DNA of 64,000 nt from an uncultured Actinomycetota bacterium. GTDB taxonomy: Bacteria > Actinomycetota > Actinomycetes > Propionibacteriales > Nocardioidaceae. The position numbers and the translations under genes are program-made. The stretch lies in assembly GCA_963826155.1 (NCBI GenBank), contig CAWGVX010000002.1, positions 455,814 to 519,813 on the forward strand. Direction: 5' to 3'. This document shows positions 50,318 to 64,000 of the stretch, piece by piece. The notes below the pieces were generated by a model. That model did not search any database. It saw nothing but the letters and a program-made list of their open reading frames with translations, and was not told the origin of the DNA. Positions within the stretch are counted from its first letter, which is position 1. Each line of letters opens with the position of its first letter.

Positions 50318-51406
50318 TCACAGCCGGCCGACGAGGTCGGCGGCGGTCTCGCGCGCACTCTGGCCGACCCCGGCCAGGGTGGCGGAGGCGGGGCCGACCC
50401 AGTCGCCGTACCCGACCAGGTAGAGGCGCGGCTCGTGGAGGGCCCGGGTGCCGGGCGGCCCGCCGACCGGGACCCGTCCGTCATGGTCGCGCAGGCCGAG
50501 CTCCCTGAGGTGCTGCAGCGCGGGCCGGAAGCCGGTGCACCAGATCACGGCGTCCGCGGGGTGGGTGGTGCCGTCGGCCCAGGCCACGCCGGTGGTGGTG
50601 AGGCGGTCGAACATCGGTTGCGCCTTCAGGACGCCCCGGTCGCGTGCCTCCCGTACGCCGGGGACCATCACGATGTCGCCGAGCCCGGCGACGCCGGCGT
50701 GGTCGCGACCCTCGCGGAGGGCCTGGATGCGGGCCCGGGCGGTCGCGAAGAGCACCCGTCCGTCGACGTCGTCGGCAAGGAACCGGGGCGGCCTCGCCGT
50801 GACCCAGGTGGTGTCCGCGACCCGGGAGACCTCGGCCAGGATCTGGGCGGCCGAGTTGCCACCGCCGACGATCACGACCTGCTGCCCGGCGAACAGGTCA
50901 GGTCGGCGGTAGTCCGAGGCGTGCAGCTGCCGGCCCGCGAACTCGCGCATCCCCGGGTAGGACGGCCAGAACGGCCGGTCCCAGGTGCCGGTCGCGGAGA
51001 CGACGAACCGGGTGCTGATGGCCGGTCCGGGGCCGGCGACCAGCAGCTGCCCCGCCGGGTCGTCGTCGGCGCGGGTGACGGCGTCGACGCGGTGCGGCCG
51101 GCGCACGCGCAGGTCGTAGCGGGCCTCGTAGCGCGTCAGGTAGTCCACGACGTGGGCGCGGGGCGGGTATCCGTGCTCGGCGTCGTTCCAGGCCGGCATC
51201 ATCCAGCCGGGCAGCGAGGAGTGGGTGGAGGGGGAGAAGAGCCTCAGGTCCTCCCACATGTGCGACCACGAGCCGCCGGGTGCGGCGCCGGCGTCGAGGA
51301 TGACGAAGTCCTCGCCGGGAGTGAGTCCGGCGCGGCGCAGGTAGAAGCCGGTGGCGAGGCCGGCCTGGCCACCGCCCACGACGACGGCCTGGGTGCGGGC
51401 GGGCAC
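50318..51406 (-). CDS. arsO: ArsO-like flavin-containing monooxygenase
   Basis: GGGQAG, QLHASDY, GGGNSA, WCTGFRP; downstream of arsR in an ars cluster. Confidence 0.8.
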   Translation of the reverse strand: MPARTQAVVVGGGQAGLATGFYLRRAGLTPGEDFVILDAGAAPGGSWSHMWEDLRLFSPSTHSSLPGWMMPAWNDAEHGYPPRAHVVDYLTRYEARYDLRVRRPHRVDAVTRADDDPAGQLLVAGPGPAISTRFVVSATGTWDRPFWPSYPGMREFAGRQLHASDYRRPDLFAGQQVVIVGGGNSAAQILAEVSRVADTTWVTARPPRFLADDVDGRVLFATARARIQALREGRDHAGVAGLGDIVMVPGVREARDRGVLKAQPMFDRLTTTGVAWADGTTHPADAVIWCTGFRPALQHLRELGLRDHDGRVPVGGPPGTRALHEPRLYLVGYGDWVGPASATLAGVGQSARETAADLVGRL

Positions 51407-51417
51407 GAGCGGGTCGG

Positions 51418-51798
51418 TCAGCCGGTGAAGGCGAGGGCGTCGCGCACCTCGGCGAGGCGCTCGGGGACGACCCGGTAGTAGACCCAGGTGCCGCGCTTCT
51501 CGGTCGCGACCAGCCCGGCCTCGCGCAGCAGCTTGAGGTGGTGGCTGGTGGTGGCGGCGGTCTTCCCGATGCCGGCGCTGAAGTCGCAGGCGCACACCTC
51601 GTCGGCGTTGAGCAGCATCGACATGATCTTCACCCGGGCGGGGTCGGCCAGCGCCTTGAACATGCGGGCCAGCTCGGTTGCCGCGTCGTCACTCACGCTC
51701 GACGACGGGGTGCAGCAGGCGGCGATCACCGGGAGCGCAGTGCCCGGGCCAGGAGTCGCGGATCGGGTCACGGCCGGGGCGGTTTTCGTGCTGCTCAC
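51418..51798 (-). CDS. arsR: ArsR/SmtB regulator
   Basis: AACCTP, FKALADPARVKI, EVCACDF, SHHLKLLREAGLV...GTWVYY. Confidence 0.88.
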   Translation of the reverse strand: MSSTKTAPAVTRSATPGPGTALPVIAACCTPSSSVSDDAATELARMFKALADPARVKIMSMLLNADEVCACDFSAGIGKTAATTSHHLKLLREAGLVATEKRGTWVYYRVVPERLAEVRDALAFTG

Positions 51799-51829
51799 GG
51801 GCCCCAGCCTATCCGGGAACCACGGCTGT

Positions 51830-51891
51830 TTCGAGAAATGTCGAAGAAATGCTTTGATCTCTGTCGAACCTATGCTTCGATGAATGTCGAA
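51830..51891. promoter_or_regulatory. Three ArsR-type operator palindromes TT(C/T)GA-N6-TCGAA with 23-bp period
   Basis: 51830-51845, 51853-51868 and 51876-51891 in the divergent arsR/arsI intergenic region. Confidence 0.75.
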
Positions 51892-51926
51892 TCATCCTTC
51901 GTTCCCTTCCCGACAGGAGCACCGAC

Positions 51927-52364
51927 ATGTCCCGCCTGCAGCTCGCCCTCAATGTCGACGACATCGACGCGGCCGTGGACTTCTACACCACGCTGTTCGA
52001 CACCGCCCCGGCCAAGCGCCGGCCCGGCTACGCCAACTTCGCGGTGGCGGACCCGCCGCTGAAGCTGGTGCTCTTCGAGAACCCCGACGCCACCGGCACG
52101 CTGAACCACCTCGGCGTCGAGCGCGAGTCGATGGAGGAGGTCGAGGCCCAGGCGGACCGGCTGGAGGCGGCCGGCCTGCAGCTCCGCGTGGAGGGCGACG
52201 TGGTCTGCTGCTACGCGCGCCAGGACAAGCACTGGGTCACCGGTCCCGACGGTCAGTCCTGGGAGAACTACGTCGTGCGCGCCGACGCCCAGCCCGAGCT
52301 CGAGGGCAGGACGTACGCCGACCTCGGGCTCAGCGCGGCCTCGGGCGGCGGCTGCTGCTCCTGA
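51927..52364 (+). CDS. arsI: ArsI/CadI family glyoxalase-fold protein (C-As lyase-like)
   Basis: QLALNV, PLKLVLFEN, LNHLGVE, CCYARQDKHWVTGPDG..WE. Confidence 0.85.
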   Translation: MSRLQLALNVDDIDAAVDFYTTLFDTAPAKRRPGYANFAVADPPLKLVLFENPDATGTLNHLGVERESMEEVEAQADRLEAAGLQLRVEGDVVCCYARQDKHWVTGPDGQSWENYVVRADAQPELEGRTYADLGLSAASGGGCCS

Positions 52365-52438
52365 GTGGGTGGCGGCAGGTGCCGACCCGGGCCGACCGGC
52401 ACTTGCCGCCGGACATCGACGGCTGTCAACATAGACGC

Positions 52439-52861
52439 GTGTCGAAATCCTCTGGCGTCTCGACGCCCCGGCAACTGCCGCTCGCCGAGGGCTCCCTGAC
52501 GTGTTGCGTCCCGCTCGCGCACCAGCCGATGAGTGCCGGGCAGGCCGCGCAGGTGGCGCTCCTGCTGAAGGCGATCGCCGACCCGGCCCGGTTGCGGCTG
52601 CTCTCACTCGTGCTCTCCCACGAGGGTGCCGAGGCCTGCGTGTGCGACCTGACGCCGTACTTCGACCTGAGCCAGCCCACGATCAGCCACCACCTCAAGG
52701 TGCTGCACGAGAGCGGTCTGCTGGACCGCGAGAAGCGGGGGACCTGGGTGTTCTACAAGGCGCGCCCCGAGGCCATGGCCGCACTCGGCAGCCTGTTCGC
52801 GACCGGAGCCCTCGACGAGGCGGCCGGCCCCGGCGCGGGACTGGTGGGGGCCGACGGATGA
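52439..52861 (+). CDS. arsR: ArsR/SmtB regulator
   Basis: TCCVPL, KAIADPARLRL, EACVCDL, SQPTISHHLKVL. Confidence 0.88.
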   Translation: MSKSSGVSTPRQLPLAEGSLTCCVPLAHQPMSAGQAAQVALLLKAIADPARLRLLSLVLSHEGAEACVCDLTPYFDLSQPTISHHLKVLHESGLLDREKRGTWVFYKARPEAMAALGSLFATGALDEAAGPGAGLVGADG

Positions 52862-53973
52862 GCGACACGGTGCGCGAGGGCGGCGCGACCCGCAGCGACG
52901 GGACGGTCCTCCGGCAGCTCTCGACCCTGGACCGGTTCCTGCCGGTCTGGATCATCGCCGCGATGGTTCTCGGCCTGCTGCTCGGCCGCCTCGTGCCGGG
53001 GCTGGACGACGCGCTCGCGGCGGTCGAGATCGGATCGGTGTCGCTGCCGATCGCGGTCGGACTGCTCGTGATGATGTACCCGGTGCTGGCCAAGGTGCGC
53101 TACGACGAGCTCGGCCACGTCACCGGCGACCGGCGCCTGCTGGTGACCTCGATCCTGCTCAACTGGGTGCTCGGTCCCGCGCTGATGTTCACGCTGGCCT
53201 GGCTGCTGCTGCCCGACCTGCCCGACTACCGCACCGGCCTGATCATCGTGGGGCTGGCCCGCTGCATCGCGATGGTGCTGATCTGGAACGACCTGGCCTG
53301 CGGCGACCGCGAGGCCGCCGCGATCCTGGTGGCGCTCAACGCGGTCTTCCAGATCCTCGCGTTCGCCGTGCTCGGCTGGTTCTACCTCCAGGTCCTGCCC
53401 GGGTGGCTGGGCCTGGCGCAGGACGCGCTCGACGTCTCCATGTGGGGCATCGCCCGGTCCGTGCTGGTCTTCCTCGGCATCCCCCTGCTCGCCGGCTACC
53501 TCACCCGCACCCTCGGCGAGCGCGCCAGGGGCCGCGACTGGTACGAGGCCGAGCTGCTGCCCCGGATCGGTCCCGCCGCGCTCTACGGGCTGCTGTTCAC
53601 GATCGTCATCCTCTTCGCCCTGCAGGGCCGCACCATCACCAGCCAGCCGCTCGACGTGGCCCGCATCGCCGTACCCCTGCTGGTCTACTTCGCCGTGATG
53701 TGGGGCGGGTCGATGCTGCTGACGAAGGCGCTCGGCTTCGACTACCAGCGCGCCACCGCGGTCTCCTTCACCGCCGCCGGCAACAACTTCGAGCTCGCCA
53801 TCGCCGTCGCCATCGGCGTCTTCGGTGTCGCCTCCGGCCAGGCCCTCGCGGGCGTGGTCGGGCCGCTGATCGAGGTCCCCGCCCTCGTCGGGCTGGTCTA
53901 CGTCAGCCTCTGGGCCCGCCGCTTGTTCCCCGACCGCGGCGCCGCCACCACCTCGACGGGAGCTCTCCAGTGA
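52858..53973 (+). CDS. acr3: Acr3 arsenite efflux permease
   Basis: LSTLDRFLPVWI, MMYPVLAKV, GLARCIAMV, NNFELAIAVA, GPLIEVP. Confidence 0.95.
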   Translation: MSDTVREGGATRSDGTVLRQLSTLDRFLPVWIIAAMVLGLLLGRLVPGLDDALAAVEIGSVSLPIAVGLLVMMYPVLAKVRYDELGHVTGDRRLLVTSILLNWVLGPALMFTLAWLLLPDLPDYRTGLIIVGLARCIAMVLIWNDLACGDREAAAILVALNAVFQILAFAVLGWFYLQVLPGWLGLAQDALDVSMWGIARSVLVFLGIPLLAGYLTRTLGERARGRDWYEAELLPRIGPAALYGLLFTIVILFALQGRTITSQPLDVARIAVPLLVYFAVMWGGSMLLTKALGFDYQRATAVSFTAAGNNFELAIAVAIGVFGVASGQALAGVVGPLIEVPALVGLVYVSLWARRLFPDRGAATTSTGALQ

Positions 53974-54437
53974 CCGGTGCAGTGACCGGTGCAGTGACCG
54001 CCACCCGCGCCCCCCAGGTCGTCTTCGCCTGCGTCCGCAACGGCGGGCGCTCGGTCGCGGCCCGGGTGCTCACCGAGCACTACGCCGGCGGTCGCGTCGT
54101 CGCGCTCTCGGCCGGCACCCAGCCCGGCGAGCACATCCACCCCGAGGTCGCCGAGGTGCTCGAGAAGCTCGGCCTCGACACCTCCGCCGAGCACCCCAAG
54201 ATGCTCACCCGCGAGACCGTGGCGGCGAGCGACCTGGCGATCACCCTCGGCTGCGGCGAGGAGTGCCCCTACGTCCCGGGCGTGAGGTACGTCGACTGGC
54301 CGGTCGACGACCCGGGCGGGCAGGACGAGGCGACCGTGCGCCGGATCATCGCCGACCTCGACGGGCGGGTCCGCTCCCTGCTGGTCGACCTCGTCCCGGG
54401 CCTGGCGCTGCCGCCGTCGGTGCTCGCCCGGGGCTGA
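53970..54437 (+). CDS. arsC: LMW arsenate reductase / arsenate-mycothiol transferase
   Basis: CVRNGGRS (CX5R), SAGTQP, TLGCGEECPYVPG, DWPVDDP. Confidence 0.85.
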   Translation: MTGAVTGAVTATRAPQVVFACVRNGGRSVAARVLTEHYAGGRVVALSAGTQPGEHIHPEVAEVLEKLGLDTSAEHPKMLTRETVAASDLAITLGCGEECPYVPGVRYVDWPVDDPGGQDEATVRRIIADLDGRVRSLLVDLVPGLALPPSVLARG

Positions 54438-56150: not shown

Positions 56151-56266
56151 GGGCGACTCCGTTCTCGGGTGGTGCAGGCGACTGGGGGTCAATCCTGCCG
56201 CACCCGCGCTGCGCGGTCGGTACGGGCGCCGCTGCACACGGCACCGAACTGGCTAACGTGGGTCCG

Positions 56267-56429
56267 ATGCCGAACCGTCTTGCGACCGCGACCTCGCCGT
56301 ACCTCCTCCAGCACGCCGACAAACCGGTGGACTGGTGGGAGTGGGGCAGCGAGCCCTTCGAGGAGGCGCGGCGCCGCAACGTCCCGGTGTTGCTCAGCGT
56401 CGGCTACGCCACTGGTGCCACGTGATGGC
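56267..56429 (+). pseudogene. Original 5' fragment of the YyaL/DUF255 thioredoxin-domain gene, displaced by island insertion
   Basis: [27 protein letters not shown]...LLSVGYA; 37/48 aa identical to the 5' end at 61174; host-like codons; 7-bp deletion before the core. Confidence 0.85.
56408..56429 (+). repeat. attL-like core, 22-bp direct repeat GCCACTGGTGCCACGTGATGGC
   Basis: Identical to 61322-61343. Confidence 0.9.
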
Positions 56430-56524
56430 CGGTGGGCGTGAGGGTAGGGCGGCGGGCCAGGTTCAGGCGTAGAGCGGCTCGTTCTGTCCGGCCGGCACCC
56501 AGGTGGTTCCGGTCTTTCCGGAAC

Positions 56525-56547
56525 AATCTCAGTCTGGAATCTCTGTC
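56525..56547 (+). repeat. Tandem 13-bp-period AATCTC(A/T)GTC repeats (arm-type-like, left end)
   Basis: aatctcagtc-tgg-aatctctgtc; the 14-mer CTGGAATCTCTGTC recurs at 61104-61117. Confidence 0.65.
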
Positions 56548-56615
56548 TGACACAGGTTCTCGAGACCCAGGGGGAGGGGCTTGCCGCTAGTGGTCAGTGT
56601 CGCATGGTTGACAGG

Positions 56616-57269
56616 TCAGATCTCGACGCGGAGAAAGGTCAGCACCGCGAGGACGCGGCGGTGATCGTCGCTGGTGTCGGGGAGGTTGAGCTTGGTGAAG
56701 ATGTTGGAGATGTGTTTCTCGACTGCGCCGAGCGTGACGACCAGTTCTTTGGCGATGCCGGCGTTGGTGCGGCCTTCGGCCATCAGCGCGAGTGTCTCGC
56801 GTTCGCGTGGTGTGAGTGGGTCGAGTTCGTTGCTGCTTGCTGAGCGGACGCGTACGAGCTCGGAGACGACCTCGCGGTCCAGGGCAGTGCCGCCGGCCGC
56901 GACGCGTTGTAGCGCGTCGACGAACTCGGCGATGTCGCTGACTCGCTCCTTGAGGAGGTAGCCGAGGCCGCCGCCGGGTGAGTCGAGGAGCTCGGCGGTG
57001 TACACGGGTTCGACGTACTGCGACAGGATGAGGGCGGCTAGCTCTGGGTGCTTGGCCCTCGCGGAGATGGCTGCGCGGATGCCTTCGTCGGTGAAGGTGG
57101 GAGGCAGGCGGACGTCGATGATCGCGAGGTCTGGGTTGTGCTCGGCGATGATGTCGAGCAGGCCGGGGCCGGTGTCGGTGAAGGCCACGACCTCGATGTC
57201 GACGTCGTTGAGCAGGGCGATGAGTCCCTCGCGTAGGAGTGCGTGATCCTCGGCGATCACTACGCGCAC
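56616..57269 (-). CDS. NarL/LuxR family response regulator
   Basis: VIAEDH, IDVRLPP, YLLK, LTPRERETLALMAEGRTNAGIA...VEKHISNIFTKL. Confidence 0.95.
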   Translation of the reverse strand: MRVVIAEDHALLREGLIALLNDVDIEVVAFTDTGPGLLDIIAEHNPDLAIIDVRLPPTFTDEGIRAAISARAKHPELAALILSQYVEPVYTAELLDSPGGGLGYLLKERVSDIAEFVDALQRVAAGGTALDREVVSELVRVRSASSNELDPLTPRERETLALMAEGRTNAGIAKELVVTLGAVEKHISNIFTKLNLPDTSDDHRRVLAVLTFLRVEI

Positions 57270-58306
57270 GGCACCTCCGCATGGACGTGTGTTGGCCCTC
57301 CCTCGGGTGAGAAGAGCTCGAACGTGCCGTCTAGGGCCTCGACACGCGCCCGCAAGCCTTGCACACCGGTTCCCGTCAGGTCGACGCCGCCGGGGCCTTG
57401 GTCGGTGACGTCGGCGGCCAATGAGTCGAGGGCGTAAGTGAGGCGGATGTGGACAGCGGAGCCTGGGGCGTGCTTGGTCGCGTTCGTCAACGCTTCGGCG
57501 ACCACGAAGTAGATGGCACTCTCGGCCGCGGGCGGTGGACGGTTGCTGTCGCTGGGGCTCGCGCCGATGACCTCGATCGTGGCGCTTCCGCGCTGGGTGA
57601 GGGACTGGATGGCTGCGACCAGGCCCCGGTCGGCCAGCACGGGCGGTGCGATGCCTCGGGAGATGTCACGCAGTTCGCCGATGGCGAGGTTGGCCTCCTC
57701 GCGGGCGGCGCGGACGAGGGCGGCTGCCTTGGGTTCGTGGGCGACGGCGAGCTCGGCGCGGCCGAGCTGCATGGTGAGGGCGACCAGTCGGGCCTGCGCG
57801 CCGTCGTGGAGGTCGCGCTCGATGCGGCGCAGCTCCGCGGCCTGGGCGTCGACGGCTTGGCGACGGGTTCGGCTGAGGGTGTCGACGCGTTCCTGCAGCT
57901 TGCGGGTCCCGAAGGCAGGGAGATCGTCGCGGAGGTCGATGAGGGCGTGCAGGCCCAGCAGGACGCCGAGGCCGATGACGGACCAGAGCACCCACGGTCC
58001 CTGGTGGCCGGTGAAGGCCCACACGAACACCAGGGCGACGGACAGCGTGATGGTGACTTCCAGGTGCAGTCGCACTCGGGCATGCGGGGTGTTGGGCGTG
58101 CCGCGCACGTGCTGTCGCCACAGGAGCGGGACCAGGACGGTCGCGCACCCGAGGATGACCCAGCTCGGCCAGAAGTAGCCTCCTCCGGCTGCGACCCAGA
58201 CGGCCACGCAGGTCAGCACGGTGATGAGGCTGAGAGCGGTCAGGAACGCCAGGGGCGAGGCGACCGGTCGGTTCGCCTCGCCTCGACGGGGGGTGATACC
58301 CCTCAT
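57260..58306 (-). CDS. Membrane sensor histidine kinase (HisKA_3)
   Basis: Four TM segments, IERDLHDGAQARL, AEALTNATKHA, DQGPGG, GLRARVEALDG. Confidence 0.92.
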   Translation of the reverse strand: MRGITPRRGEANRPVASPLAFLTALSLITVLTCVAVWVAAGGGYFWPSWVILGCATVLVPLLWRQHVRGTPNTPHARVRLHLEVTITLSVALVFVWAFTGHQGPWVLWSVIGLGVLLGLHALIDLRDDLPAFGTRKLQERVDTLSRTRRQAVDAQAAELRRIERDLHDGAQARLVALTMQLGRAELAVAHEPKAAALVRAAREEANLAIGELRDISRGIAPPVLADRGLVAAIQSLTQRGSATIEVIGASPSDSNRPPPAAESAIYFVVAEALTNATKHAPGSAVHIRLTYALDSLAADVTDQGPGGVDLTGTGVQGLRARVEALDGTFELFSPEGGPTHVHAEVPCA

Positions 58307-60582
58307 GCTGTGTCCTGTCCTTCGGGAGCACTGATGGCGGCATTCTTCCAGCCGGGCATCCGCCAGCCGCGCTCTCCGAGGAGGGCGACGACGGCTGGCA
58401 GAGCTACGCCTCGCACCAGTGTCGCGTCGATCAGGACCGCTGCCGCAAGGCCCACACCCAGCTGCTTGAAGGTGATGACGTCTAGCGTCGCGAAGATCGA
58501 GAACACGGCGACCATGACGATGGCGGCGCTGGTGATCGTGCCCGCGGTGGCGCCGACACCCTCCGCGGCAGCAGCGCGGGGGCTCAGCCCCGCAAGACGC
58601 GCCTCGCGGATGCGCTCGAGGACCAGCACGGTGTAGTCCATGGAGAGCCCGAACAGCACCACGAACATGAACAGGGGCAGCCAGTTGATGATGTGCCCGG
58701 TGGAGTGGAAGTGGAGCAGGCCTTCTGCCCAGCTGTGCTGGAAGACCAGCGTGAGGACGCCGTAGGCGGCGCCCACGGAGAGCAGGTTCAACCCCATCAC
58801 AGCCGCCGCCAGGAGGGGCGACCGGAAGGTCAGCAGCAACAGCAGGAAACCGAGCAGCAGAACGAACCCGATGACCTCAGGGGTGGCCACGCTCATGCGG
58901 TCGGAGTAGTCCATGGTCGACGCGGCATCGCCGGTGACCAGCGCGGACGAGGTGACGCCGTCGATCTTGGTCGCCTCCGGCGCGACGTCCGTCCGCAGCT
59001 GCGTGATGGTGTCGCTCGCCTCGTCGAGGCTCTGGTCCGGCATCGGCACATTCACGCGGGCGACCTGACCATCGGAGGAGACCGTGACGGTGATCGGGCC
59101 CTGTCCACCGGTGGCCTTGCTCGCCTGCTGCCCGAGGGCGGTGAGGGCTTTCTTGGCGTCGGGGGTGTCGAGGTCGTGGCCGGAGACGACCAGCTGGCTG
59201 TCCGATGGGGCGCCGGGGAACGACGTCTCGATGGCGTTGAGCGCCTGGACCACCGGGAGGTCTTGGGGCAGGTCGGCGACCTGTAGGTCCCCGGTCTGCA
59301 TCGAGGCGAACGGGACGGTCAGGGCACCGAGGACGCCGACAGCGGCCAGGAGGAACCCGAGCGGGTGGTTGGTGACGACGCGGGCGAGCCGGGCCCAGAA
59401 GCCGTTCGGCCGGCCGGCAGCCGAGGCGCGCTGCTCTCGTCGGGCGCGGGCCGCGGCGCGGCGGCGGTAGCCCGGGATGCGGCCACGGTCGACGCGGTCA
59501 CCGAGAAGGGCGAGCGTCGCGGGCAGCACGGTGAGCGAGCCGAGCACGGCGATCGCGACCACCGTCATGGTGCCCAGGCCGATCGAGACGAGGTCGCCGG
59601 CGCCGGTGATGAGCAGGCCGGCCAGGGAGATGATCACGGTGAGTCCCGAGATGAAGATCGCTCGGCCCACGGACGCGGCTGCAGCGATCAACGCGGACTC
59701 CGGCATGGCCCGACCGGCAACGCGTGCCGGCCCGCGGCCGCGGCGGCGCTCCTCACGCTCGCGGCGCACGTAGAACAGGGAGTAGTCGACCCCGACCGCG
59801 AGACCGATGAGAACGACGATCGCCGAGGTCGACCCGCTGTTGGGTGCGATGTGCGACACCAACCCCAGGGCACCGATGGCCGCGACCACGGAGGTGAGGC
59901 CCAGCACGAGCGGCACGCTGGCGGCGACGAGGGCGCCGAACGCCAGGACGAGGATCAGCAGCGTCAGCGGCAGTGAAATCATCTCGGCACGGTGAAGACC
60001 CGTCCCGATGACGTCGTTGATCGCCTTGGTCTCGGTCCCGTCGCCGACCTCCTGGAGCTGAGTGCCTGGATGTGCGGCTTCGACCTTGTCGTTGAGCTCG
60101 AGTAGCGGGTCGACGTGGTCGGCGGCATCGTCGGGGTTCCCGCTCAGCTGGACCTGCACGAGAACGGTCCGGCCACCATCGGCGACCAGCTCCTCAGACT
60201 GAGCCGGCCCCGTCACCGACGCCACGCTCGGCAGGGCGGCCGCCTGCTTGGTCAGGTCAGCAGCCGCATCGCTCGCCTTGGTCGCCGTAGGTGCCGTGAT
60301 CGGGATGTTCTCCGTGGCAGGGTCACGAAGCCCCTTCTGCTGAAGGAGGGAGTCGGCCTGCGCAGACTCACCGACCTCCGACTGAACCTCGGTGAGGTTC
60401 TGGGTGCCGACGAAGCTGCCCATGGCGACGCACGCCACCACGAACAGCAACCACGCGGCGATGATCTTCCTCGGATGACGCTGCGCGACCAACGCGGACC
60501 CCCGCACCAAACGAACCAAAGAGCCCTGCGACTTCGTCGTCGGCAGGTCGCCGCCGCGCTCGCGAGAGAGGGAGAAAGTCAT
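58303..60582 (-). CDS. MMPL (RND-superfamily) transporter
   Basis: GLAVGVDYSLF and FGLSMDYTVLVLERIRE motifs; two extracytoplasmic loops. Confidence 0.93.
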   Translation of the reverse strand: MTFSLSRERGGDLPTTKSQGSLVRLVRGSALVAQRHPRKIIAAWLLFVVACVAMGSFVGTQNLTEVQSEVGESAQADSLLQQKGLRDPATENIPITAPTATKASDAAADLTKQAAALPSVASVTGPAQSEELVADGGRTVLVQVQLSGNPDDAADHVDPLLELNDKVEAAHPGTQLQEVGDGTETKAINDVIGTGLHRAEMISLPLTLLILVLAFGALVAASVPLVLGLTSVVAAIGALGLVSHIAPNSGSTSAIVVLIGLAVGVDYSLFYVRREREERRRGRGPARVAGRAMPESALIAAAASVGRAIFISGLTVIISLAGLLITGAGDLVSIGLGTMTVVAIAVLGSLTVLPATLALLGDRVDRGRIPGYRRRAAARARREQRASAAGRPNGFWARLARVVTNHPLGFLLAAVGVLGALTVPFASMQTGDLQVADLPQDLPVVQALNAIETSFPGAPSDSQLVVSGHDLDTPDAKKALTALGQQASKATGGQGPITVTVSSDGQVARVNVPMPDQSLDEASDTITQLRTDVAPEATKIDGVTSSALVTGDAASTMDYSDRMSVATPEVIGFVLLLGFLLLLLTFRSPLLAAAVMGLNLLSVGAAYGVLTLVFQHSWAEGLLHFHSTGHIINWLPLFMFVVLFGLSMDYTVLVLERIREARLAGLSPRAAAAEGVGATAGTITSAAIVMVAVFSIFATLDVITFKQLGVGLAAAVLIDATLVRGVALPAVVALLGERGWRMPGWKNAAISAPEGQDTA

Positions 60583-60655
60583 ACCTCAATCGTCGAAGAA
60601 TGCGCCCGCTCGGTCACTGGAGCCAACCGGCGTCCAGCTCAGCGGGCACCCCCCC

Positions 60656-60689
60656 GGACTCATGGTGGGGATAACCCCACCATGAGTCC
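60656..60689. promoter_or_regulatory. Perfect 15-bp inverted repeat upstream of the MMPL gene, putative response-regulator operator
   Basis: GGACTCATGGTGGGG-ATAA-CCCCACCATGAGTCC. Confidence 0.55.
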
Positions 60690-60811
60690 ATGGTGAAAGG
60701 TTGTGGCTGCCGCCTGGACTGGCGCCGCGCGCAACCAGCCTCACGCGCCGTAGGACCCCGGACTGCCCGCGGGCTAGGTCATTTCCATCTCGGCCTTGGT
60801 GAGGTGTTCCC

Positions 60812-60996
60812 TTACCAGGACGTATCTTCAGGGGTGTCGAGGCGGTACTTGCCGCCGAGGACGGGCCGGGGAGAGCCGGGCGTCTTGAGGTGTACGTAGC
60901 CCTGTGTCTTGCCCCAGCCGTAGCGGGCGAAGACGTCGCGGGCGGACAGGAACTGTGCCGGGGGGCGAGCCCCTCGAGCGTTGTTGGTGTGGTCAT
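60812..60996 (-). pseudogene. AlpA/excisionase-like small HTH gene, frameshifted
   Basis: ATG at 60996 gives [11 protein letters not shown]; after the C6 run (60960-60965) another frame gives [43 protein letters not shown]. Confidence 0.65.
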
Positions 60997-61103
60997 GGGG
61001 TGGAACGTGCTGGCTCTGAAATCGGCCGCAATCACGGAGTTCTGGTCGTCCCTGACCCGGTCTGGACCCGGCCGGACGGACCGGTCGGAACCAGCTCTTC
61101 TGC

Positions 61104-61123
61104 CTGGAATCTCTGTCGGGAAT
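61104..61123 (+). repeat. CTGGAATCTCTGTC plus partial second copy (arm-type-like, right end)
   Basis: ctggaatctctgtc-ggg-aatcc; the 14-mer is identical to 56534-56547. Confidence 0.65.
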
Positions 61124-61173
61124 CCCAAGCAGCTGCTCGCCTGTCACTTGGGCAGTGGCAGAGACTGGTCACT

Positions 61174-63162
61174 ATGCCCAACCGTCTCGCTGCATCATTG
61201 AGCCCGTACCTGCAGCAGCACAAGGACAATCCGGTGGACTGGTGGGAGTGGGGACCCGAGCCGTTCGCTGAGGCTCGCCGGTTAGACATACCTGTCCTTT
61301 TGAGCGTCGGGTACGCCGCGTGCCACTGGTGCCACGTGATGGCGCACGAGTCGTTCGAGGACGAGGCGACCGCGGCCTACCTCAACGAGCACTTCGTCGC
61401 GATCAAGGTCGACCGCGAGGAGCGGCCCGACGTCGACGCGGTCTACATGCAGGCGACCACGGCGATGACCGGGCAGGGCGGCTGGCCGATGACGGTGGTG
61501 CTCGACCACGACGGCACCCCGTTCTTCGCCGGCACCTACTTCCCAGACAAGCCGCGGCACGGCCAGCCGTCGTTCGGCCAGGTGCTGCAGGCGCTCGTCG
61601 ACGCGTGGCGGGACCGCGGCGACGACGTACGCCGGGTCGCGGGCAGCGTCCGCGAGCACCTCAGCCAGGGGCTGTCGCTCACCGGTTCGGCCCAGCCCAT
61701 CGGCGCCGAGCTGCTCGACGCCGCGGTCGCGACGCTGGCCGGGGAGCTCGACGCGCGCAACGGCGGGTTCGGCGGCGCGCCGAAGTTCCCGCCGTCGATG
61801 GTGCTGGAGCTCTTGGCCCGCCATGCGGTCGCGACAGGCTCGACCAGCGAGGGGCGCGAGCGCGCGACGGTGATGCTCGACGCGACCTGCGAGGCGATGG
61901 CCCGCGGCGGGATCTACGACCAGCTCGGCGGGGGCTTCGCGCGCTACTCGGTCGACGCCGGCTGGGTGGTGCCGCACTTCGAGAAGATGCTCTACGACAA
62001 CGCCCAGCTGCTCGGTGTCTACGCCCGCTGGGGCGGGCCGCTGGGGGACAGGGTCGCCCGCGAGACCGCCGACTTCCTGCTCCGCGAGCTGCGCACGGCC
62101 GAGGGCGGGTTCGCCTCCGCGCTCGACGCCGACAGCGAGGGTGTCGAGGGCCGGTTCTACTCCTGGACGCCGGCGCAGCTGGCCGAGGTGCTGACCCCCG
62201 AGGACGCCGCCTGGGCCGCGCAGGTCTTCGAGGTCACCGAGGCCGGCACCTTCGAGCACGGCGCCTCCACGCTGCAGCTGCTCCGCGACCCCGAGGGCCC
62301 GGGGGAGCAGCGGCTGCGCGACGTGCGCACGGTGCTGCTCGCCGCCCGCGAGACCCGGGTCCGGCCGGCCCGCGACGACAAGGTGGTCGCGGCCTGGAAC
62401 GGGCTGGCGATCTCCGGGCTCTGTGCGGCCGGGCTGCTGCTCGAGGAGCCGTCGTACGTCGAGGCCGCGGCGACCGCCGGCGAGCTGCTCGCCTCGTTGC
62501 ACATCGTGGACGGCCGGCTGCGCCGGGTCTCCCGCGACGGCGTGGTGGGCCGGCACGCGGCGGTGCTCGAGGACCTCGGCTGCGTGGCCGCCGGCTACCT
62601 CGCGCTGCTCCGGGCCACCGGCGACGCGGTGTGGCTGGAGCGCGCCCGGGTGCTGCTCGACGACGCGCTGATGAGGTTCCGCGCCGAGGACGGCGGCTTC
62701 TTCGACACCGGCTCCGACGCCGAGGCGCTGGTCGCCCGGCCGCGGGACCCGTCGGACAACGCCAGCCCGTCCGGCCTGTCCGCGACCGTGCACGCGCTCG
62801 CCGAGTACGCCGCGCTCACCGGCTCCGGCCGGCACCGGCAGGCCGCCGAGGAGGCGCTCGCGACGGTGGCGGCGCTGGCCGAGCGGGCGCCCCGGTTCGC
62901 CGGCTGGTCGCTCGCGGCCGCCGAGGCGATGCTCGACGGACCGTTGGAGATCGCGGTCGTCGGCCCCGCCGGACCGGACCGCGACGCGCTCGCCGCCCGC
63001 GCCCGGCGGGTCCCCGGCGCAGTGGTCGTCGTCGCCGACGGGCCCCGCGAGGACGTGCCCCTGCTGGTCGGGCGGACCGCGGTCGACGGCCGCGCGGCGG
63101 CGTACGTCTGCCGGCACCAGGTCTGCGAACGCCCGGTCACCGACCCAGCCGACCTCCCCTGA
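61174..63162 (+). CDS. YyaL/DUF255 (SPATA20-like) thioredoxin-domain + alpha/alpha-toroid protein; 5' end supplied by the island
   Basis: [64 protein letters not shown]. Confidence 0.93.
61322..61343 (+). repeat. attR-like core, 22-bp direct repeat
   Basis: Identical to 56408-56429; spans the CHWCHVMA codons. Confidence 0.9.
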
Positions 63163-63169
63163 CCCTGCG

Positions 63170-63270
63170 CGAGACGGCACTTCGGTCAAGTCTCACGGCG
63201 CCGAGACGGCACTTGTGCCGGCGCGAGTGCCGTCTCGGCACGTCGGGAGTTGATGCAAGTGCCCTCTCGC
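63170..63270. repeat. Intergenic palindromic element (GGCACTT...AAGTGCC family)
   Basis: 14-bp stem 63200-63213/63226-63239; reverse-complement matches to 31415-31423 and 31440-31450. Confidence 0.65.
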
Positions 63271-63331
63271 CATTCCGTCGGCCGCTACCGGCGGGTACGT
63301 TCGGCACCACCTCCGAGGTGAAGGACGTCAC

Positions 63332-64000
63332 ATGGCATCGAGCGACACAGCGACGAGCAGGGCCGAGAGCTACGACTACGTGATCGTCGGCGCGGGCAGC
63401 GCCGGCGCGGTGCTCGCGGCGCGGCTCAGCGAGGAGCCGCGCACGACCGTGCTGCTGCTCGAGGCCGGGGGCGAGGCCGACGCCGACGAGATCCGCATCC
63501 CGGCCGCCTTCGCGAGCCTGTTCCAGACCCGGTGGGACTGGAACTACAGCACCACCGAGCAGAAGCAGCTGCACGACCGGCGGGCCTACTGGCCGCGGAT
63601 GAAGGCGCTCGGCGGCTGCTCCTCGATGAACGCGATGATCTACATCCGCGGCAACCGCGCCGACTACGACGGCTGGCGCGACCAGTACGGCGCCGCCGGG
63701 TGGGGCTACGACGACTGCCTGCCCTACTTCGTCAGGGCCGAGGACAACACCCGCCTCGGGAGCCCGTTCCACGGTCGCGGCGGCCCCCTGCACGTCGAGG
63801 ACCGGGTCTACACCCACGAGCTCAGCGAGCTGTTCGTCGAGAGCGCGGTCGCCGCCGGCCTGAAGCGCAACGACGACTTCAACGGCGCCGAGCAGCAGGG
63901 CGCGGGCCAGTACCAGGTCACCTGCCGCGGCGGCCGCCGCTGGTCGACCAACGAGGCCTACCTCCGCCCGGCCCGCGACCGGGAGAACCTCACCGTCGCC
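63332..64000 (+). CDS. GMC oxidoreductase (choline dehydrogenase-like), runs off the window
   Basis: YDYVIVGAGSAG, LLLEAGG, KALGGCSSMNAMIYIRG, GWGYDDCLPYF. Confidence 0.92.
   Translation, partial: MASSDTATSRAESYDYVIVGAGSAGAVLAARLSEEPRTTVLLLEAGGEADADEIRIPAAFASLFQTRWDWNYSTTEQKQLHDRRAYWPRMKALGGCSSMNAMIYIRGNRADYDGWRDQYGAAGWGYDDCLPYFVRAEDNTRLGSPFHGRGGPLHVEDRVYTHELSELFVESAVAAGLKRNDDFNGAEQQGAGQYQVTCRGGRRWSTNEAYLRPARDRENLTVA

Follow-up and report, generated by a model that had tools for sequence, protein, structure and literature searches.

In a known family of integrative elements, the members share a near-identical tyrosine integrase and enter the 5' end of one conserved housekeeping-type gene through near-identical attP x attB recombination, with variable cargo. 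The islands described here resemble that family in these respects, but they differ in that they enter yyaL of Actinomycetota at its CxxC codons, they are small, and the copy in the window (the whole 64-kb stretch of high-GC actinobacterial DNA that was analysed, from a 4.48-Mb genome) is without an integrase. When the literature was searched for yyaL or DUF255 as an integration site, no description was found. A second point of comparison is provided by cryptic, decayed prophages and genomic islands, in which att sites are degenerate. As in these, the integrase appears to have been lost from the island in the window, accessory genes are broken and the flanking repeats are mutated, which would leave the cargo anchored; the difference is that the damaged repeat lies within a displaced gene fragment, so that the lesion sets the allele that would be rebuilt by excision. 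The locus also shares with toxin-antitoxin and addiction systems, in principle, the penalty on loss of the element. However, there is no active killing and there are no dedicated genes, and, unlike addiction, the penalty depends on the existence of an excision enzyme and falls on a single route of loss out of at least two.

The insert in yyaL is 4.9 kb in size. To its right lies an intact chimeric yyaL (61174-63162, forward strand), encoding a thioredoxin-domain DUF255 protein of 662 aa (Pfam E 3e-71) that is 91% identical in amino acids to YyaL of Nocardioides panaciterrulae, the closest named relative; the RNase J regions of the window and this species share 95% DNA identity. To its left, in the host arm of attL, is a displaced host 5' fragment of yyaL (56267-56425, forward strand), 52 codons plus a stop, whose ORF (ATG at 56267, 52 aa) matches Pfam Thioredox_DsbH/DUF255 over positions 1-48 (E 2.4e-18). 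The two 5' regions align in register, at ~70% identity, as far as a TAC codon. The left fragment is 89-92% identical in nucleotides to the yyaL 5' end of N. panaciterrulae and has a GC3 of 0.94, as against 71-78% identity and a GC3 of 0.74 for the right 5' end, the replacement borne by the element (61174-61321, forward strand; 70% identical to the left fragment). Identity and codon composition mark the left fragment as the old 5' end of the host, as the first-pass annotation had proposed, and the right one as foreign. A longer ORF that overlaps yyaL (61320-63383, 687 codons) was set aside as an alternative frame, a high-GC artefact that could mislead gene calls at the junction.

Two side observations concern the same neighbourhood in N. 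panaciterrulae (locus L085). Its displaced fragment (L085:7092-7286) is the same as its intact gene (L085:10001-10160) over ~150 bp, and the similarity runs on upstream of the start codon; this identity suggests gene conversion between its two yyaL copies. Judged from the sequence, the RNase J/yyaL neighbourhood is also rearranged between the window and L085. In N. panaciterrulae the arsenic-resistance cluster (window 50318-54437, L085:1188-5259) is flanked by RNase J and the yyaL fragment, but in the window it occupies the opposite side of RNase J; the 3' end of arsC in the window (54326-54437) resembles, at 81%, a 53-codon ORF just upstream of yyaL in L085.

At the two junctions of the island stands a perfect 22-bp direct repeat, GCCACTGGTGCCACGTGATGGC, with one copy at attL (56408-56429) and an identical one at attR (61322-61343), both on the forward strand. 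The intact right copy reads GGG TAC GCC GCG TGC CAC TGG TGC CAC GTG ATG (TAC at 61312-61314, junction 61312-61329), and the left copy reads GGC TAC GCC ACT GGT GCC ACG TGA (TAC at 56405-56407, TGA at 56423-56425). The deletion junction, TAC GCC ACT, is at 56405-56413 on the forward strand, with 7 bp gone after 56407 between two GCC microhomologies. Because GCC flanks the gap on both sides, the lost bases can be placed equivalently as GCCGCGT, CCGCGTG, CGCGTGC or GCGTGCC. Without them, the first Cys codon is gone and the shifted reading frame runs into a stop at 56423-56425, within the attL copy of the core. Each element of the first-pass description of this lesion was recovered, namely a 7-bp deletion in the old 5' fragment (the bases are absent on the left and present in the intact right junction and in relatives), the loss of GCGTGCC between GCC microhomologies, and the missing first Cys with the frameshift that follows.

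The same annotation had claimed that precise excision through the 22-bp core would now leave a null yyaL, and this was borne out by simulation, since joining the flanks through the core gives MPNRL…GYATGAT*, a product of 52 aa. A second route of loss exists upstream of the deletion, where a 23-bp run, CCGGTGGACTGGTGGGAGTGGGG, one base longer than the core, at 56324-56346 (forward strand) is identical to 61231-61253. Simulated recombination in this run removed the island and gave a 662-aa in-frame chimera with CxxC kept and no internal stop, so that it is a possible site of island loss that leaves yyaL intact. The penalty on island loss thus applies to the core route and not to every route. The deletion also bears on the attachment site itself. 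The missing 7 bp fall within TACGCCGCSTGCCACTGGTGCCAC, a block that is the same in attL and attR of all family members; in L102 the perfect identity of attL and attR covers only TGCCACTGGTGCCACG. Because everything to the left of the lesion within the family-shared block is shifted, attL is probably crippled; the deletion would probably disable it directly, with the left half of the core destroyed.

Among the junctions compared, the lesion was seen only in the window, where it was read from the assembly. In an alignment of nine junctions, taken from the window, both copies of N. panaciterrulae L085, and loci L001, L002 and L004, the gap occurs only in the left copy of the window and the eight others keep the 7 bp. 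Among ~22 independent attL junctions, the 7 bp were kept in all but the window, and ~20 of the 22 are intact; the other frameshift is a +1 C in one lineage (L114/L116). Soil-metagenome contigs that are 95-97% identical to 56176-56422, a match that takes in the non-coding spacer between RNase J and yyaL, have GCCGCGT behind 56407 (at all depth in run X2 and at half the depth in run X7). Since these contigs still carry the bases, the loss is, by comparison, derived and recent. The contigs of this sister lineage cover the host fragment, with ~0 depth on the island arms (56434-56560) and on most of the cargo, and the element-borne 5' end of yyaL has low depth in the sister-strain metagenomes. The near-total lack of depth on the arms in X2 and X7 suggests that these close soil relatives are without this island. 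The Logan metagenome contigs all break at the conserved core, and none joins the host 5' end to the host 3' part. Among the public sequencing runs searched for this genome, none was found to hold it (best share 0.09-0.20).

The family to which the insert belongs was found among yyaL relatives with 10-kb flanks. The arrangement of displaced 5' fragment, insert and intact gene is also present in L002, L004, L052 and L085, and attL/attR pairs at the same yyaL codons occur in L002, L004, L052, L085, L102 and L124; the window likewise has the insertion at the CxxC codons and a replacement 5' end carried by the element. A 468-aa tyrosine integrase is encoded divergently from yyaL in L001 (1516-2922, reverse strand), L081 and L082 (10001-11407 in each), L102 (919-2307) and L129 (845-2185), and a truncated copy is found in L004. 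The 468-aa protein matches a PHROG integrase (6e-20) and, weakly, Pfam Phage_integrase and SAM_3, and its hundreds of homologues, at 84-91% identity, are spread over Nocardioides, Georgenia, Yimella, Isoptericola and other genera. L001 has tandem CGTGCATCACT repeats between yyaL and the integrase, and in two complete genomes the integrase adjoins yyaL, with restriction-modification, SIR2, SMC-like ATPase and helicase genes beyond it. In Actinomycetota, the CxxC codons of yyaL form a recurrent insertion point, predicted to be specified by the integrase, and the set with the 468-aa integrase seems to be a widely distributed family of yyaL-site islands with many defence genes. The islands measure 2-10 kb or more, and conjugation genes were not seen in them.

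The cargo of the family is diverse. It includes type I restriction-modification systems, an MmeI-like enzyme, SIR2_2, SMC-like ATPases, T5orf172 and DEAD helicases. At L002:5703-9287, where the integrase is absent and attL is intact, there are a TOTE-type archaeo-eukaryotic primase-helicase fusion, Fic and HTH proteins. The island of L085, also without integrase, has PIN/VapC-like, HTH_17 and DUF2510 genes.

A conserved small ORF links the window to this family. Its copy in the window (60815-60996, reverse strand; 50% aa identity to L004), a candidate excisionase-like gene, is degenerate when judged against full-length family members, as it needs a +1 correction for a frameshift at a C6 run and its conserved C-terminal half is missing. 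It had no Pfam or PHROG match, and the PHROG excisionase match of its L004 homologue reached only E 0.07. A profile of the small ORF found 67 loci among metagenome contigs, many of them beside yyaL and/or the 468-aa integrase and many followed, a few kb further downstream, by a 5' fragment of yyaL. Several were ordered yyaL, integrase, small ORF, and others, like the window, lacked the integrase and had the small ORF directly after yyaL. From the shared small ORF and these integrase-less loci, it can therefore be deduced that the insert in the window is a member of the yyaL-site integrative island family with its integrase lost. At two of the loci (L092:7579-8126 and L123:875-5554), two copies of the small ORF lie upstream of a single yyaL fragment, which suggests tandem or nested islands at the yyaL site.

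No integrase or recombinase domain was detected by Pfam among the ORFs of the island, and tblastn with the family integrase gave no match in the whole 64-kb window; the place divergent from yyaL at attR, where other members encode the 468-aa integrase, is without one. This state is common among the islands that were fully captured, a sample of seven skewed to short islands, since five of the seven have no integrase and one more has a truncated copy, and in all but the window attL is intact. Integrase-less islands with an intact attL are L002, L052, L085 and L124.

What the island does carry is a three-gene operon on the reverse strand, consisting of a NarL/LuxR-type response regulator (56616-57269; Pfam Response_reg and GerE), a HisKA_3 sensor kinase (57260-58306; Pfam HisKA_3 and HATPase_c) and an MMPL-family transporter (58303-60582; Pfam MMPL, E 5e-71). 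Over 4,058 bp, from ~100 bp ahead of the start of the MMPL gene through the stop of the regulator (60682-56627), the operon is 84% identical in nucleotides to a chromosomal locus outside any island (window 56627-60682 against L083:9771-13812). The L083 copy is near lon and dnaK, between unrelated housekeeping genes, and L084 is a second such locus. From this match, the cargo is, as compared here, an ordinary chromosomal module. The interior of the island looks like a captured or replaced chromosomal module. Between the repeats there remain ~490 bp without a convincing gene in the listed 180-codon frame; this frame ('orf180', 60586-61128, reverse strand) was rejected as a gene, with a GC3 of 0.66 as against 0.84-0.98 in real genes and no Pfam match.

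The arms of the island set it apart from the members with the 468-aa integrase. Each arm holds one copy of a 14-mer, CTGGAATCTCTGTC, which occurs exactly twice in the window, at 56534-56547 and at 61104-61117 (the latter on the forward strand), where 0.17 matches would be expected by chance with up to two mismatches allowed; the second copy is a candidate arm-type site. The left arm (56430-56626) is unique sequence, with no homology to L083 or to the arms of other family members. The window and the 468-aa-integrase family are alike in insertion point, replacement 5' end, small ORF and the presence of direct repeats within both arms. They are unlike in that the window has no integrase, a regulatory/transport operon in place of the defence-type cargo of several members, and unrelated arms, whose repeats (GGAATCTCTGTC) differ from the CGTGYATCACT arms of the family. 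With blastn, no similarity was found between the arms of the window and those of the family, and tandem CGTGYATCACT was absent from the window. A 13-mer of the window arms was not found in the 86 loci in which it was looked for; near-matches in L127 and L138 were rejected, being inversely oriented and part of another conserved arm motif. The foreign 5' end was likewise rejected as a cluster mate of the 5' ends borne by the integrase family, with at most 76% identity. Because its arms have nothing in common with those of the 468-aa-integrase members, the island may originally have used a different integrase.

The reading that we prefer, with a probability of roughly 70%, is that the deletion is neutral decay of a dead attL in a stranded, decayed integrative island, and not a stabilising device. 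An element of the family that targets the CxxC stretch of yyaL would have integrated by site-specific recombination with a tyrosine recombinase, as intact members suggest, pushing the first 48 codons of the host gene to the left and supplying a 5' end and promoter of its own, so that yyaL would have stayed functional. Later decay would have removed the integrase, frameshifted and truncated the small ORF, and left an interior that is a chromosomal-type MMPL/kinase/regulator operon. The displaced fragment would by then be a pseudogene without selection, from which 7 bp could be lost between two GCC triplets by slippage or by microhomology-mediated repair. Excision through the remaining core would, according to the simulation, rebuild a frameshifted yyaL, and the left half of attL is probably destroyed, but neither consequence would matter much because no excision machinery is present in the 64-kb window.

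Neutral decay accounts less easily for one feature of the family. Two of the ~22 attLs are frameshifted, and both lesions begin at the same nucleotide after TACGCC. In the second lineage, seen in two metagenome contigs, the displaced yyaL fragments of L114 (8089-8219) and L116 (6642-6769) are 100% identical and share the +1 C (TACGCCCGCCTGT) at the spot of the deletion in the window. Random decay explains this shared spot only moderately well, roughly 1 in 10. An unlikely alternative is that frameshifts at the crossover side of attL recur in yyaL-site islands, either as scars of abortive exchange or as selected attL-disabling lesions, with the island fixed in either case.

The first-pass annotation went further and claimed that the deletion, if yyaL matters for fitness, fixes the cargo as a passive lock, since excision gives a null yyaL; on this reading, island-free segregants would be counter-selected. 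The 52-aa product of core excision and the second lineage frameshifted at the same spot are in keeping with this, as is selection on yyaL, suggested by the replacement 5' end with which all elements of the family keep the gene whole. However, with no integrase visible in the 64-kb window and the small ORF degenerate, there is nothing visible to lock against; attL is itself probably damaged, and the 23-bp run allows the island to be lost with the gene intact. Most integrase-less islands persist with an intact attL, and the frameshift is therefore not needed for persistence. Moreover, L114 and L116 share their frameshifted fragment, yet their island arms have diverged and their cargo differs, so the frameshift there did not freeze the content of the island. 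The lock was not upheld, and we regard a selected role of this kind as very unlikely.

A scar of abortive recombination is another account of the lesion, and one that we hold to be highly improbable. The missing 7 bp would be, or abut, the strand-exchange overlap, lost when a staggered break made in attL by the integrase was closed by end joining. Lambda-type integrases typically use an overlap of seven bp, and the length of the deletion matches this; the lesion lies within the family-wide common core, and a second, independent lesion starts from the same nucleotide. On the other hand, slippage at the GCC microhomology and the GC-rich GCCGC(C/G) repeat accounts for the loss equally well, and the sample consists of two events.

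The order of events could also be reversed, with the 7 bp lost first from an uninterrupted yyaL, giving a null allele that integration then repaired, so that the insertion was selected as a rescue. This needs as many events as the decay of attL, the 3' part of yyaL is intact, and the 22-bp core that is left would in principle have been usable as attB. But the sister contigs at 95-97% identity keep the 7 bp, so that such a null allele would have to be very recent; an incomplete family-wide core would have made a poor attB, and the other marks of decay argue that the island has been in place for enough time for the deletion to have come afterwards. Such a rescue seems hardly probable. Least probable of all is an assembly or sequencing artefact in a genome that really has the 7 bp, since, although the region is a diverged repeat, its copies are ~70% identical outside the core and should not be collapsed, and no sequencing platform typically drops 7 bp outside a homopolymer.

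As neutral decay, the 7-bp loss alone is an ordinary mark in a stranded island and changes little, although it can serve as a marker, dating the lesion after the split from the soil relatives that are 95-97% identical. Were the recurrence of attL frameshifts real, a once-mobile island would have been fixed by a killed site together with a null host gene from any residual excision. The locus also shows how an island may integrate site-specifically, rebuild its target gene and finish with an excision product that would be lethal to that gene. For the yyaL-site islands as a family, the context of the insertion site is more useful than the deletion, as the cargo found there is varied and often of the defence type, PIN and Fic included.
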